IMG/VR virus record: IMGVR_UViG_3300020045_005658
Span: 1 to 27,016 of that record
Strand: one strand, 5' to 3'
Source: a virus
Taxonomy: Duplodnaviria; Caudoviricetes
DNA: 27,016 nucleotides
Part shown: one piece after another, positions 3,100 through 19,183 of the stretch
How positions within the stretch are numbered: the stretch's first letter is position 1
Layout of the letters: each line of letters starts with the position of its first letter
Position numbers and translations under genes: made by a program
The notes under the pieces: generated by a model
The model's input: only the letters and a program-made list of their open reading frames with translations
Databases searched by the model: none
What the model was told of the DNA's origin: nothing

Positions 3100-3173
3100 A
3101 CGGCCTTAGCTCAGTTGGATAGAGCAAAATTTTTCTAAAGTTTAGGTCACTGGTTCGACCCCAGTAGGCCGTA
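3100..3173 (+). tRNA. tRNA-Arg(UCU), no encoded CCA, acceptor stem extended by 13 bp of flank pairing
   Basis: Acceptor ACGGCCT/AGGCCGT, D arm GCTC/GAGC, anticodon loop TTTCTAA (TCT 3134-3136), T arm ACTGG-TTCGACC-CCAGT. Confidence 0.9.
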
Positions 3174-3187
3174 CAAAGTATTCTTAG

Positions 3188-3223
3188 GCGACCTTAGCTC
3201 AGTCGGTAGAGCAGGAAACTCAT
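3188..3223 (+). pseudogene. 5' half of a tRNA(CAU) (Met/Ile2 type), ending right after the anticodon
   Basis: GCGACCT-TA-GCTCAGTCGGTAGAGC-A-GGAAA-CTCAT then unrelated sequence; no matching 3' half seen in the window. Confidence 0.75.
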
Positions 3224-3247
3224 GTAAGATTAATGAAAGTGTTTTGT

Positions 3248-3354
3248 GCGAGTTTAGCTCATCGGTTAGAGCAGGGTACTCTCGCAAAAGGGCTCTATTA
3301 AATAGAACCCTTTGGATAATGCCTTGGTGACTGGTTCAACTCCAGTAACTCGCA
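3248..3354 (+). tRNA. tRNA(CAU) (Ile2/Met-like; GAU in an alternative register) interrupted by a 34-nt hairpin insertion in the anticodon
   Basis: Acceptor GCGAGTT/AACTCGC, D arm, anticodon stem GGGTA/TGCCT, T arm ACTGG-TTCAACT-CCAGT; removing 3282-3315 restores the loop CTCATAA. Confidence 0.8.
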
Positions 3355-3364
3355 CAAAACACTT

Positions 3365-4129
3365 TTATATAGAATACTTAAAATCTGCAATACTATCTAG
3401 TGTGAATTTATTTTTCTTAATTAAATTTATTGCAGTTTTAGTAATCACTACTAATTCTTTACTGTGTGTATTAATTAATGAATTCCATTTTGCAAGATCT
3501 TTATCTTTTTGCATACCTTTAACTTCGATGTAGACATCTGTATCTGGTAAATAAAAATCTGGGAAATATGATCTGGTACCTTCAAATTCATATGCAAACG
3601 GAATTTCTGGTTGTTTTATCGTAATATTATTTGAAATACAAAATTCTACAAATAACTGTTCCCAACTACCTAAAACTTTAAATCCATTGGAACATATTAA
3701 TTCTTTAACATTGCCACGATTATATGTACCTCTATAAGAATCTGGATGATCTAATACAGCTTTCTGCATTGCAATAGAAATATTTTTAATGTTTTGTTCT
3801 GAATTTTTGCGACCTGTTCCTGCAACACTTTGCTTTTCTCTAGTTTCTCTAGATACTATATATTCTGTTTTAATATTATTTTTGTCTATAAATTGATTGC
3901 ATGGAGTTTGTCTATTTATATTCATTTTACATAGTGATTCATGTCTTTTATTAGTTGTATGTTCTCCGCAGTGAATACATATTTTTTCAAATTTTTTGAT
4001 TTGACCTATATTACTAGCCTTGCCTCCAGACTGACACTGTTTTGAGTTATAATGTATTTGTAAATTGTTTACACTAACTTCTGATCTACATAACAAACAC
4101 GATACTTTATTTTTGATGTGACTTGACAT
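3365..4129 (-). CDS. Putative free-standing homing endonuclease: Zn-finger, NUMOD3-like segment and PD-(D/E)XK (TnsA-N-like) nuclease, 254 aa
   Basis: YFPDFYL...YIEVKG nuclease motif; SRETREKQS NUMOD3-like motif; Cys/His clusters; ATG 4129 has a GGAGA RBS; opposite strand to the host genes. Confidence 0.78.
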   Translation of the reverse strand: MSSHIKNKVSCLLCRSEVSVNNLQIHYNSKQCQSGGKASNIGQIKKFEKICIHCGEHTTNKRHESLCKMNINRQTPCNQFIDKNNIKTEYIVSRETREKQSVAGTGRKNSEQNIKNISIAMQKAVLDHPDSYRGTYNRGNVKELICSNGFKVLGSWEQLFVEFCISNNITIKQPEIPFAYEFEGTRSYFPDFYLPDTDVYIEVKGMQKDKDLAKWNSLINTHSKELVVITKTAINLIKKNKFTLDSIADFKYSI

Positions 4130-4143
4130 GAAATTGTCTCCGA

Positions 4144-4224
4144 TAAATAACAATGAAGGACAGTACGGATACCTGTGCTGTGTGGCAAAGAGTCTCACTT
4201 CTTTGCCTTACTTCATTATTTAAT
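4144..4224. promoter_or_regulatory. Three-way-junction element upstream of nuclease A, bounded by TAAATA on both strands
   Basis: P1 4152-4158/4211-4217, P3 4160-4166/4175-4181, P2 4184-4191/4200-4207; same architecture at 18419-18506. Confidence 0.65.
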
Positions 4225-4280
4225 CAAAATGAAATTTCAATGAATCTTGTGTTATAATTACACTAAGAAAAATTCTTAAC

Positions 4281-4375
4281 TAATCTAATTGCACTGCCTT
4301 CTGCAGAAGGTGTTTGGTTGCAATGTTATCGTAGGTACTAAAACGGTTCGATTCCGAGTCAGTGCAATTAGATTA
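4281..4375 (+). ncRNA. tRNA-like module closed by a 16-bp perfect inverted repeat
   Basis: TAATCTAATTGCACTG 4281-4296 pairs with 4360-4375; inside are the CCTTCTGCAGAAGG hairpin, an irregular middle arm and CGG-TTCGATT-CCG T arm; promoter at 4250-4258. Confidence 0.6.
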
Positions 4376-4397
4376 ATTTATATCATGAAAGATTATT

Positions 4398-4693: not shown

Positions 4694-4768
4694 TCTGGTG
4701 TAATTCAATGGTTAGAATAGTTGCCTTATAAGCGACCTACCCGTGTTCAATTCCCGGCATCAGAACCA
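4694..4768 (+). tRNA. tRNA-Ile(UAU), CCA encoded
   Basis: Acceptor TCTGGTG/CATCAGA, anticodon arm GTTGC-CTTATAA-GCGAC (TAT 4727-4729), T loop TTCAATT with one T-stem mismatch, ACCA end. Confidence 0.88.
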
Positions 4769-10614: not shown

Positions 10615-10650
10615 TCAAATAGCTAGGCGACGAAGTTTAGAACTGGCTTA

Positions 10651-11660
10651 GAAAAGTAATGGCGAAGTTCGAAGAAGCTATTACTTTTCACATCAAAACA
10701 TATTAGATCAGCACCCGTTTCGCACTGCTTTCTGGCTATGTTATAGTGAATATGTTTAATATGGCGGTAGTAATTGAGTAAAGTTGGGTCCAATGATACT
10801 CAATAGTTTGTAACACCCGAAAGGCAAGGGTTACTAATAAAACTGAGAACGACTGATATGCTTTACTACCACCATATCAAAGAACATTAGCTGAGTACAA
10901 GGCTCAGCATGTGAAATTATAGAGTAACTAAGCCTCAAGAGGAAGCTATAATGTTCTTTGATATGGTACATCTAGTTGTTTAGTAGTCATAGATATGTAT
11001 TTTAGCCTTAGCGGGGTGAACGAAGTATCAAACGGGACTGCAACGAAAAGACATCGAGGCTCGGAATCTCGATACTAAACAACAAACTATCACAAAGCAT
11101 TCTGCAGAATGTTAGCGTGGCCGCAGGCATGGCTTAGATAGCCTTTCCAAGTTCGATTCTTGGGGTGATAGTAGATGTGTCATATTAAACTATACTGCAT
11201 CAACGTGTGACGCCCTTAATGGTACCATTATTGTTCGACAAGTATTCGTTACATTGGAATAGAGATCCATTGCAGCATAGTTTAATATGATATGCACAGG
11301 AAAGATAATGCATATCATATCATATTAAACCATACTTGTCATTTGATATGCAACCGATAATACCGGTTGATCATACGTGGCCTCAGTCATCGTTCTAGAC
11401 GTGAGATAACGAAAATAGTATGGTTTAATATGATAACGCGCCAATATACGAAAAGTCCCTGGTGAGACTAGATGCCTTAGAAAATAAGGCTAGGTATGTT
11501 GGTGCTGATCTTGGCTAATCAGCTATCATATAGAAGTATCTTTGTGGAGTAGACAATGAGGGCAGAGTGATCCTTGCTCATGTTAACAACGGCATGAATA
11601 GGATAAGACACTGAGCGACCTGATTCTATTCTTTATGTAAAGAAGATACTTCTATATGAT
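10651..11660 (+). ncRNA. Array of about 10 back-to-back structured non-coding modules, each closed by an inverted repeat
   Basis: Closing stems at 10651/10689, 10696/10757, 10766/10870, 10871/10967, 10975/11083, 11086/11172, 11180/11290, 11318/11435, 11438/11505 and 11525/11660; no ORF in the track; G-U wobbles favour the + strand. Confidence 0.75.
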
Positions 11661-11663
11661 TAT

Positions 11664-11853
11664 GGCGGAGTGGTGAAATTGGCATACACAGACTGTGGCG
11701 GGACGCTTAAACCCTCTTTGGACTAACACTGATCAGTTAGAATATTAAACAGTTGCTATTAAAATGCGTGAGAGAAATCTTAAATTGTATTAATGCGGGG
11801 CACTGCACATATACTATGCATTTACTGTTGGTTCGAGCCCAACCTCCGACACC
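11664..11853 (+). ncRNA. Enlarged (~190 nt) tRNA-Leu-like RNA with expanded anticodon and variable domains
   Basis: Acceptor GGCGGAG/CTCCGAC (one mismatch), Leu-type D arm GTGAAATTGGCATACAC, T arm GTTGG-TTCGAGC-CCAAC, ends ACC(T). Confidence 0.7.
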
Positions 11854-16352: not shown

Positions 16353-16358
16353 AATTAC

Positions 16359-16432
16359 CTGCTCTAAAGTGTAAGTATATGCACGGTTCCTAAAGCGGGA
16401 AACATGCCAGTGAGAATCTGGGTGAGTAGCCA
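16359..16432 (+). ncRNA. tRNA-like cloverleaf with CCA end and no valid anticodon loop
   Basis: CTGCTC/GAGTAG closing stem, GTGTA/TGCAC arm, TTCCT-AAAGC-GGGAA arm, CCAG-TGAGAAT-CTGG T-like arm, CCA. Confidence 0.6.
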
Positions 16433-16437
16433 AATTT

Positions 16438-16512
16438 TTACTCAAGTCATTAGACCTCGAAAGAGAAGTCCTGTTTACAGGTGTTACGGCGTGTTGAACC
16501 GTTGAGAGTAAA
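16438..16512 (+). ncRNA. Small cloverleaf module
   Basis: TTTACTC/GAGTAAA closing stem; GAC-CTC-GAAA-GAG-AA-GTC, CCTG-TTTA-CAGG and ACGG...CCGT arms. Confidence 0.5.
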
Positions 16513-16642
16513 TTTATTCATGGATTCTGATGATATCGATGTCAGTGACGATTTGTTGGTAGCTTTCTTAGGTTCGATTCCCTAGCTCTGGTGAGTTTGA
16601 AATCTATCATCGTAAAGTCTTTGTAGAGTCCATGAATAAATT
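16511..16642 (+). ncRNA. Structured module closed by an 18-bp inverted repeat with an internal T arm
   Basis: 16511-16528 pairs with 16625-16642 (one G-U); contains TAGG-TTCGATT-CCCTA. Confidence 0.6.
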
Positions 16643-17141: not shown

Positions 17142-17350
17142 GTTTCGTTTCTTAATTGAAACACAATGAGAGTGCCTGAAGGCCCGTGGTTAAATCTAAT
17201 ACCACTGAGGAATGTTATTCCAAGAATCAGAAAATAACGTGTTTATAAATTCGGCGTCTAATAAACGCAAAGCCTTGATGGTTAGATACTGTAGATCAGT
17301 ATTTGACAAAATAAGATAGGCGAGTCAGTAATAGTTTTAGGCTGACACCA
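17142..17350 (+). ncRNA. Candidate ~200-nt multi-branched RNA ending in a minihelix plus ACCA
   Basis: Nested stems GCCT/AGGC, AAGGC/GCCTT, GTGGT/ACCAC, ATGTTATT/AATAACGT, AGATACTG/CAGTATTT and GTCAGT/GCTGAC-ACCA between two tRNAs. Confidence 0.55.
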
Positions 17351-17559: not shown

Positions 17560-18408
17560 TTAATGAATATTTAGTAGATTTTTAACTAATTCTATTTTTG
17601 ATTTGCTTATAAATTCTTTATGTGAAATTCTGAGTGTTGTTATTGTATGATATTTTTTAATTAGTTCATCTCGTAAATTATCATACTCTTTACTTTGTTC
17701 GTGTTGTTTACCGTCAAGTTCAATTAGTAGATTATATGTTGGAAAGAAGAAGTCACCATAATAGATTTTATTGTTACATCTAAATGTTTTATTTTTAATA
17801 TATTCAGTAAAATTATTTGATATAAGCCAATTTTCAAATGATAATTCAAGATATGATGGAGAACTTTTACATCTATTTTCTTGTGGATTCCATCCTAAAT
17901 CAATTCTTTGATTTACTTTAATTGATAATAATTTTTTATAGCATAATTTAGAGCATGTTTTTCTTGTTCCCTGAAAACAAACACTACATACTTCACAATA
18001 AGAAATTTTTGAATATATTTGTGATACTGGTTGTCTTTTCTTTTCTGTTTTAGATAGACTTTCTTTTAATTTTATAGCCTGCTGTTCTCTACTTTCTCTA
18101 CTTCTTATGCTATTATTGTACGTTGCTGCACACGACTGTGAACAAAATTTATTATTTCTACATTTGAATGTATAAAAATTATCACAGTAATCACATTTTC
18201 TAGGTGACATATTATATTCTGTTTCTTGTGTTAAATTGAATTCTTTAGATTTTGCATTTAACCTTCTGAATGTTATAGAACCACCCATTTTTACCCGTGC
18301 TTGCCCTATATCTGTATGTTTGTTTATATAATGTGTATGTATTCCCTTTGCAGAATATTCTTTTCTACCTATAATACATGAACAGAGAGGCGATTTATAA
18401 TTTGTCAT
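17560..18408 (-). CDS. Putative free-standing homing endonuclease: Zn-fingers plus DUF559/Vsr-like nuclease
   Basis: YYGDFFF...LLIELDGKQH...DNLRD motif; CxxC...FCSxSC repeats; AGGA RBS; opposite strand to the host genes. Confidence 0.8.
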   Translation of the reverse strand: MTNYKSPLCSCIIGRKEYSAKGIHTHYINKHTDIGQARVKMGGSITFRRLNAKSKEFNLTQETEYNMSPRKCDYCDNFYTFKCRNNKFCSQSCAATYNNSIRSRESREQQAIKLKESLSKTEKKRQPVSQIYSKISYCEVCSVCFQGTRKTCSKLCYKKLLSIKVNQRIDLGWNPQENRCKSSPSYLELSFENWLISNNFTEYIKNKTFRCNNKIYYGDFFFPTYNLLIELDGKQHEQSKEYDNLRDELIKKYHTITTLRISHKEFISKSKIELVKNLLNIH

Positions 18409-18506: not shown

Positions 18507-18521
18507 GCTTAAAATATATCG

Positions 18522-18549
18522 CGGAGTTCGATTCTCCATACCCGCTCCA
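18522..18549 (+). pseudogene. 3' remnant of a tRNA-Gly-like gene
   Basis: GGAG-TTCGATT-CTCC T arm, then TACCCGC-T-CCA (U73 discriminator, Gly-type acceptor); 5' part absent. Confidence 0.7.
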
Positions 18550-18614
18550 TAATTTCTAGCCACATTAAAGCAATCAGGCCCGTTTGTTGCTAGAATTATT
18601 AAAGAAAGATGACT

Positions 18615-18907: not shown

Positions 18908-19183
18908 TCTTCTGGATAGTAAGATTAAATTCAGATTTTTATTAATGAACCAAAGAAAGTGATATAATCAAGCTACGGGAATACGTGGAATATCAAGTAG
19001 GCATCGGCGTTGATGGAAACGCAGATGAGTGCACGCATTAACATAATTTCGTCTAGAGATTAGGACTCATCGAATTAGATGTAACATAAGGTTCAAATCC
19101 TTATAATTATGTAACTGGAATCAAGCCCAGTATGTCTACTTGATATGCAAATCTTCTGAGTGGTAAGATTAAACTCAGATTTT
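18908..19183 (+). repeat. Two copies of a ~32-nt hairpin element (18908-18940 and 19152-19183)
   Basis: TCTTCTG(GA/AG)T(A/G)GTAAGATTAAA(T/C)TCAGATTTT, each followed by TTAA...GAAAGTGAT. Confidence 0.8.
18990..19146 (+). ncRNA. tRNA-like module closed by a 15-bp inverted repeat, with a 34-nt anticodon-position loop and two T-like arms
   Basis: 18990-19004/19132-19146; GCGTT-GATGGA-AACGC; GATGAGT/ACTCATC; ATAAGG-TTCAAAT-CCTTAT; ACTGG-AATCAAGC-CCAGT. Confidence 0.65.

Follow-up and report, generated by a model that had tools for sequence, protein, structure and literature searches.

Hairpin inserts at position 34/35 of phage tRNA genes and a linked family of putative tRNA-targeting homing endonucleases

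The interrupted tRNA gene and its surroundings

The window, which is the whole stretch of 27,016 nucleotides analysed here, is a 27 kb fragment of a T4-like phage carrying genes for DNA polymerase, clamp, clamp loader, RegA, UvsX and helicase. None of the cultured phages is close to it, the top match of its polymerase being at 43%. Two intact tRNA genes on the plus strand, recognised by both ARAGORN and Rfam, enclose the region of interest: tRNA-Arg(UCU) (3100-3174), which lies upstream of the cassette described below, and tRNA-Ile(UAU) (4694-4768), 1.3 kb from a tRNA gene (3248-3354) that is interrupted by a hairpin. Also within the cassette is a tRNA-like RNA (4283-4372, plus strand; fold z -3.5), and a second RNA of this kind occurs at about 11100-11175. 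Both have a long closing stem, a T-arm and a D-like hairpin built on a shared motif, CUGCAG, and neither is detected by ARAGORN or Rfam. The tRNA cluster is flanked, in the window as well as in its closest relative (G052), by the gene for a 504-aa protein (1098-2612 in the window) which is labelled 'DNA transfer protein' by PHROGs, shows phosphoesterase-like motifs by eye and returned no relatives in a search.

The interrupted gene consists of a 5' exon (3248-3281, plus strand) whose last base is the wobble base C34, a 34-nt hairpin insert (3282-3315) and a 3' exon (3316-3354) running from A35 to the discriminator A73, with CCA not encoded. The exons were delimited from the sequence and the Rfam match, with a comparison of registers for the 5' exon, and the insert from its fold and pair probabilities. 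Rfam returned a full-length tRNA match over 3248-3354 (46.6 bits, E 3.6e-7) with the 34 extra bases in the anticodon loop, and ARAGORN at default settings missed the gene. When introns were allowed, a forced ARAGORN call of Glu(CUC) with the insert at 37/38 was obtained; it disagrees with the body and the context of the gene and was rejected. All the stems are complete (acceptor 7/7, D 4/4, anticodon 5/5 with two G-U pairs, T 5/5). Sequence, coordinates, Rfam match and stems agree with the original prediction, made from the letters alone, of a hairpin in the anticodon loop of an intact cloverleaf.

The precursor folds with a z of -4.15, none of 200 shuffled sequences being equally stable, and the insert alone forms an 11-bp hairpin (z -3.5). 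In the predicted layout the anticodon stem leads into a 3x3 internal loop, where CUC faces UAA, and beyond this come two junction pairs, a bulge and the 11-bp hairpin; the junction pairs U3282-A3316 (A35) and C3283-G3315 have probabilities of 0.81 and 0.84, respectively. A clean bulge-helix-bulge is absent from the window, as had been noted originally.

The insert sequence was not found elsewhere by exact search of viral contigs or by blastn against annotated phages, and no second 12-mer copy of it in the window was present among 15 of the 17 matches listed. Exact search of viral contigs with the 5' half of the gene gave no match, and blastn recovered no copy with the insert from the annotated phages; the half-matches seen in phages of Aeromonas and Vibrio proved to be ordinary unannotated tRNAs. 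Uniqueness of the insert to this genome, together with an unspliced and unstable transcript, had been regarded as a sign of a pseudogene, and the exact hairpin was indeed found nowhere else, but its build and position are common in phages. No reads cover the insert, and it is evidence at the level of the class that argues against an assembly error as its source.

The neighbouring nuclease and the mobile cassette

The ORF at 3365-4129 (minus strand), with its stop codon 10 bases from the interrupted tRNA gene, encodes a 254-aa PD-(D/E)XK endonuclease, which motif, profile matches and the context of the homologues suggest to be a tRNA(CAU)-targeting homing endonuclease. Its catalytic end is T7 endonuclease I-like, with the invariant PD..E.K residues, and three of the 120 homologues listed carry the accession PF07460 (NUMOD3). 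The best 80 of 260 relatives of the nuclease represent 58 distinct loci, and in at least 46 of these a tRNA(CAU) gene lies directly behind the nuclease gene (44 by ARAGORN, in addition to L262 and L274, where it is split by a group I intron); three more of the 58 show an overlapping CAU loop by eye. The slot behind the nuclease is occupied by intact CAU genes or by CAU genes with group I introns. At most of the loci the CAU gene alongside is free of an insert, and the hairpin therefore appears not to be required for immunity to the nuclease. A nuclease motif combined with a DNA-binding region, and an optional gene located beside or in a conserved target, are features of homing endonucleases, and the ORF is accordingly considered a putative homing endonuclease of the free-standing kind, directed against tRNA(CAU) genes of phages in their anticodon region.

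The position of insertion of this nuclease family can be read from several phages. In the Citrobacter phage CkP1 (MW239124.1), which is in culture, a CAU gene is interrupted exactly at 34/35 by the nuclease ORF and a leader hairpin; in the Acinetobacter phages AM101 (NC_049511.1) and AC4 the ORF lies inside a CAU gene at a position compatible with 34/35; and in L258 and L276 orphan tRNA halves ending at C34 precede the nuclease. The insertion point of the nuclease coincides with the position of the hairpin.

The left border of the cassette is marked by an orphan 5' half of a resident tRNA(CAU) gene (3188-3223, plus strand), identified by its sequence and by alignment to the insert-bearing gene, which ends at the last anticodon base. 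A relative's contig matches the window to 3223 and rejoins it at 4386 (a single contig obtained at a low likeness setting, its short side comprising 41 bases and the intervening letters being unseen), and the span skipped by it includes the tRNA-like RNA at 4283-4372. A DNA sequencing run gave zero cover at 3336-4002 and over the insert, the joint 3223-4386 being the only part of it used, and the block is also absent from the syntenic slot in G052. These comparisons indicate that the cassette (3224-4385) displaced a resident CAU gene, leaving its 5' half behind. The leader of the nuclease gene, with a promoter-like site (4130-4259), is homologous to the leader of an unrelated ORF in G052, which is located there behind an insert-bearing tRNA-Tyr gene.

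The same layout of an orphan CAU-type half, a hairpin-bearing CAU gene and an antisense nuclease of the same family recurs in L164, and nucleases of the family adjoin hairpin-bearing CAU genes in L152, L167 and L168. Overall, a nuclease of this family stands alongside 5 of 27 hairpin-bearing and 0 of 21 insert-free CAU genes (p 0.059). No general enrichment of homing nucleases beside the inserts was observed when any type was counted (8/34 vs 48/286, p 0.34).

Group I introns, at 33/34 and 36/37, interrupt phage tRNA(CAU) genes beside the nuclease in L246, L262, L274, L294 and L290, and in the last of these the nuclease gene follows or sits within the intron. The introns of the first four match RF00028. 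In IME341 (L431), a phage of laboratory E. coli and hence convenient as a test system, a member of the family is located between a CAU tRNA and tRNA-Arg, which is the slot listed for SegB in T4.

A recurrent class of inserts at 34/35

Pattern scans returned 54 and 88 matches in viral contigs and 78 in metagenome contigs. After removal of artefacts and other insert types, the class comprises 34 inserts, 27 of them distinct inserts of 21-43 nt in CAU bodies (from viral and metagenome contigs, the window counted) and seven in Asn, Lys or Arg bodies; the metagenome contigs were taken as found and a viral origin is presumed for some. The register is unique in 22 of the 27 CAU cases and five also fit 35/36. 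A pattern requiring CUC and AUAA supplied 20 of the 27, and in a scan leaving bases 34 and 35 free the AUAA end was found in six of eight distinct stem-intact matches starting with CUC. Tandem and duplicated-arm artefacts and the 37/38 introns of eukaryote viruses were left out of the 34, as were the inserts of L057, L082, L092 and L088 (35/36), L087 and L126 (32/33-33/34), L140 (CAU only at 35/36) and those of ambiguous register (L014, L063, L074, L091, L096, L100 and L105). Three further cases are a Leu gene in G001 and Tyr genes in G052 and L126. The CAU pattern produced 16 matches in 185,579 cellular genomes, all of them tandem or duplicated genes and none genuine. Where ARAGORN reports insert-bearing genes it mislabels them as Glu, Lys, Pyl, Leu or Val.

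The inserts are structured, 29 of the 34 having a fold z below -1.5, and their ends follow a pattern. The first insert base is Watson-Crick complementary to base 35 in 23 of 34 (10.0 in shuffles), the second pairs with the last base in 24 (13.3 in shuffles), and 30 inserts close with a purine (18.4 in shuffles). The first base also tracks base 35, U facing A35 and A facing U35 (20:5 vs 1:6, p 0.003, with the three further cases included; hand-counted over members that are not independent). The class has a junction rule, namely a pair between base 35 and the opening base of the insert and a purine at the insert's end, the junction pair being absent in 11 of the 34, both Arg cases among them.

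Hairpins of common descent were recognised in different tRNA genes. A 32-nt hairpin in an Asn gene (L064) is identical at 28 of 32 positions to that in the Tyr gene of G052 (L427), with one compensated pair and none broken; the window's own Tyr gene has no insert, in contrast to that of G052. Hairpins of a 30-nt family are shared by CAU, Asn and Lys genes, 1-3 of their pairs being compensated and 0 broken, the register in the Asn and Lys genes being 32/33-33/34. Homologous hairpins evidently move between tRNA genes. The bodies that receive them are largely intact: in terms of stem-mismatch counts, 29 of 32 insert-bearing bodies have zero mismatches as against 30 of 37 controls without an insert, only genes with a nearly intact anticodon stem having been admitted, and two bodies (L162 and L168) have 3-4.

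The class helps to fix the register of the insert in the window. Computation of the registers bore out that excision of 3282-3315 gives CAU and that of 3281-3314 gives GAU; GAU results at 32/33, where the start of the loop is non-standard, and at 33/34, CAU at 34/35, CUU at 35/36 and CUC at 36/37 and 37/38. CAU at 34/35 is favoured because a tRNA(CAU) gene lies behind the nuclease relatives in most loci, because the orphan half at 3188-3223 comes from a similar CAU gene, and because the nearest insert-free body is a CAU gene, as it is for 21 of 23 class members tested, the body reference set being CAU-rich (72/648). For the non-CAU cases the nearest body matches the assumed anticodon in 4 of 7. 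The class motif of CUC, insert and AUAA agrees with the same register. Nearest bodies, nuclease-locus context and register products led to the rejection of 32/33, 33/34, 35/36, 36/37 and 37/38; the 33/34 register, in which the window's insert would follow U33 and close with G, yields AAU for most of the class, and 37/38 gives CUC with G37, contrary to the body and its genomic context. The assignment of the insert to the junction between C34 and A35 of a tRNA(CAU) is confirmed by these sequence comparisons. Of the two registers originally taken as alternative routes to an Ile tRNA, CAU has been retained and GAU discarded.

The amino-acid identity of the tRNA is either Ile2 or elongator Met, its identity marks tending towards Ile2, and the tRNA is presumably not initiator-like. 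The nearest bodies are CAU genes without an annotated type, and the nearby Ile(UAU) gene is compatible with Met. An Ile2(CAU) could be redundant for AUA codons owing to this tRNA-Ile(UAU), and phage tRNAs are frequently dispensable.

Several other unusual tRNA genes were encountered in the survey. The 43-44-nt inserts of L057, L082, L092 and L088 contain a T-loop hairpin and resemble a short version of the build seen in Lak phages. The 41-nt inserts of L077 and L104, in large phage records, apparently split the 5' strand of the anticodon stem and not the loop. Arg-like tRNAs in L415 (13111-13213) and in phage phiWae14 (L433, c1626-1725) have the anticodon arm lengthened to a fully paired hairpin. 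These inserts are of another type, and one of the two genes, from an isolate that has been sequenced, follows a nuclease of the family described above. A phage tRNA-Ile(UAU) with a long variable arm, in many cases with C38, was observed in L005, L008, L009, L011 and about 20 similar loci.

Proposed origin and processing of the inserts

The hairpin inserts at 34/35 of phage tRNA genes are real, recurrent and structured, and their junction rule and homing partner are newly defined here. Their recurrence, along with the site of the cassette, points to a possible undescribed, enzyme-dependent splicing of tRNAs in infected bacteria. The best explanation of the locus, whose chances we consider evenly balanced, is an ORF-less, non-catalytic mini-intron at 34/35 of a tRNA(CAU) gene, which would be spliced by proteins and carried in a mobile cassette with a homing endonuclease. 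The nuclease would cut insert-free CAU genes of co-infecting phages; the insert and the nuclease would spread together, by collaborative homing, because the hairpin is proposed to destroy the target site. A host or phage ribonuclease, reading the 3x3 internal loop and the two-pair junction, would then cut the transcript after C34 and before A35, phage Pnk and RNA ligase 1 would heal and seal the tRNA halves, the ligase making use of the tRNA fold, and the spliced product would take over from the destroyed resident tRNA. Protein-assisted splicing and immunity to the adjacent nuclease, originally put forward as alternatives, are mutually compatible, and both have indirect support. To our knowledge, no enzyme has a cut stagger like the one proposed.

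The repertoire of RNA repair enzymes in the records carrying inserts is consistent with the sealing step. T4-type RNA ligase 1 was found over cut-off in 12 of 26 insert-carrying records as against 3 of 25 controls (p 0.013), the carriers mixing insert classes and the controls being unmatched for lineage and size, and in 5 of 7 near-complete carriers as against 1 of 8 near-complete controls (p 0.04). The ligase was absent over cut-off in 14 of the 26 carriers, mostly fragments, and none is visible within the 27-kb window or in G052. All four of the cultured nuclease carriers checked encode RNA ligase 1. RtcB occurs in 3 of the 26 carrier records, and an archaeal EndA/Sen-type endonuclease in none over cut-off, with one weak match, in what are mostly fragments. 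When the 2,598 ORFs of the window and of 15 carrier records were compared all-vs-all, 31 families proved to be present in four or more records. The 25 that were scanned include RNA ligases, Pnk, CCA enzyme, Thg1, RlaP, homing nucleases and metabolic proteins, besides three without useful annotation, and no candidate excising ribonuclease common to the 15 carrier records was found. The shared families thus amount to the RNA repair kit that is usual in large phages (compare PMC7824862).

The inserts share features with several known systems. T4 Pnk and Rnl1 rejoin tRNA cut in the anticodon (PMC3400036), and the repair of PrrC-cut tRNA-Lys, in which such a tRNA is healed and sealed in the same kind of phage (PMC3400036, PMC7824862), resembles the proposed sealing; however, T4 mends one cut in a host tRNA, whereas two cuts removing an insert are proposed here. 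As in collaborative homing (PMC2988022, PMC3984707), the insertion point of the nuclease is the position of the intervening element, a free-standing nuclease lies beside an ORF-less insert at its presumed target, and the target is a tRNA gene, L246, L262, L274 and L294 being group I versions of the cassette; unlike collaborative homing, the insert has no ribozyme and a CAU gene of elongator type serves as the target. The tRNA introns of bacteria are regarded as group I introns that splice themselves (PMC4090602). The archaeal and eukaryal protein-spliced introns, including the transposing introns of the Thermoproteales, are also short hairpins with similar inserts in unrelated tRNA bodies, and need an endonuclease and a ligase (PMC4090602), as is proposed for the present class, but the class differs in having no bulge-helix-bulge, a position other than 37/38, no endonuclease homologue over cut-off in the 26 carrier records and a bacterial virus as its carrier.

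The nearest precedent is offered by the Lak megaphages, whose tRNA genes have 'enigmatic' introns (Devoto et al. 2019, PMC6784885). Both lack a ribozyme, interrupt tRNA genes of phages in the anticodon loop and belong to no Rfam intron family, and the Lak mechanism has stood unexplained since 2019. The Lak inserts in the available part of Table S6, however, are of 79-114 nt, include T-loop or mini-tRNA parts and follow the anticodon (PMC6784885), whereas the inserts of the class are of 21-48 nt, mostly single hairpins at 34/35 with the junction pair and a linked homing endonuclease. Introns are unmentioned in the main text of the huge-phage paper (PMC7162821), and the available sections of a jumbo-phage review (PMC13282480) and the ZZ1 genome paper (PMC4177764) contain nothing on such inserts. 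In the literature covered, hairpin inserts at 34/35 are undescribed, as is the target of the nuclease family; that literature includes few subscription papers, and the remainder of Lak Table S6 or the supplements of PMC7162821 may list such genes.

A broader proposal, which we advance tentatively, is that the inserts constitute a third kind of phage tRNA intron, which has no ribozyme and is removed at 34/35 by proteins that recognise a junction motif other than bulge-helix-bulge, the ends being sealed by Pnk and Rnl1, and which occurs as 21-48-nt hairpins and as long forms with a homing ORF (CkP1, AM101) and spreads between tRNA genes. If true, it would be a bacterial counterpart of the archaeal introns, built from anticodon-nuclease and repair enzymes, and the tRNAs concerned would possibly be switched on only while an anticodon nuclease is active. 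The class offers exact predicted splice points, a mutable junction rule and a linked nuclease, and the question is directly testable in CkP1 and AM101, which are cultured T4-like phages holding the long form. Splicing, if it takes place, would be categorically new, with a ribonuclease to be found and an additional role for the RNA repair enzymes of phages; should the inserts be unspliced, it still holds that such genes are missed or mislabelled by tRNA finders, and a widespread nuclease family aimed at tRNA(CAU) has been defined.

An immunising scar in a dead gene is a rather unlikely explanation. In this scenario a nuclease gene of the family enters at 34/35 along with a leader hairpin masking its ribosome-binding site, and loss of the ORF or repair of the cut leaves a hairpin which is proof against re-cutting and never removed, the tRNA being inactive. 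The arrangement in CkP1, the compatible ones in AM101 and AC4 and the orphan halves ending at C34 ahead of the nuclease would be expected from such a history, which is also in keeping with the purine-rich 3' arms of several short inserts and with the stem mismatches in two bodies; introns disrupting a DNA target are known at Sulfolobus attB sites (PMC4090602). It leaves unexplained, however, why genes for Asn, Lys, Tyr, Leu and Arg tRNAs are also interrupted at this position, as well as the tracking of base 35 by the first insert base, the compensated hairpins, the intact bodies and the ligase enrichment.

That the precursor is itself the final product, an unspliced tRNA mimic by which anticodon nucleases or tRNA-binding defence sensors would be decoyed or inhibited, is improbable, although the intact bodies fit it equally well. 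It draws support from G012 (Lys) and L069 (Arg), where a gene with the same anticodon but no insert is present as well, from the additional CAU genes in most CAU carriers with long records, from the other tRNA-like RNAs of the window and from the Arg-like genes with fully paired arms in relatives. A decoy, however, has no need of an exact seven-base loop with an anticodon matching the body, both of which are restored by excision at 34/35, and in 7 of the 9 non-CAU cases, as counted in partial records, the anticodon is represented by the insert-bearing gene alone.

RNase III cuts a long duplex with a stagger of two bases. Removal of the insert by a known route, whether host RNase III (two-base 3' overhang), an archaeal-type endonuclease acting on a bulge-helix-bulge or a trans-acting group I ribozyme yielding Ile(GAU) between U33 and the final G, is very improbable: all three RNase III-type pairs are present in 5 of 34 inserts (1.8 in shuffles, p 0.03), but they have a probability of 0.0 in the window and class hairpins go down to 4-5 bp; a bulge-helix-bulge is found in 5 of 34 (3.9 by chance), with the canonical 37/38 position unoccupied and the archaeal endonuclease over cut-off in none of the 26 records; and the 33/34 register of the window does start after U33 and end in G, as the U/G boundary rule of group I introns demands, but that register fails across the class, the exon ends in C at 34/35, the insert is only 34 nt and has no ribozyme core, and RF00028 has no match in the window.

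Other non-coding features of the window deserve mention. Leu-like tRNA ends with ~100 extra bases between them occur at 11664-11853, where ARAGORN responds only at a lowered threshold, and numerous closed-stem non-coding units fill the ORF-free stretches 10620-11660, 16436-16640, 17150-17350 and 18960-19120. The relative's contigs cover parts of 11000-11660 and 18950-19150, and 11527-11662 has 88% identity with G052. A tRNA-like cloverleaf with a CCA end and a CUA triplet in its loop (16357-16433), whose fold is not above that of shuffles, is possibly an amber-reading tRNA or a look-alike. A second antisense nuclease gene, DUF559-like (17560-18408), lies directly 3' of tRNA-Thr and is followed by an orphan 3' tRNA half at about 18520-18550, the two together likely representing a second homing cassette.
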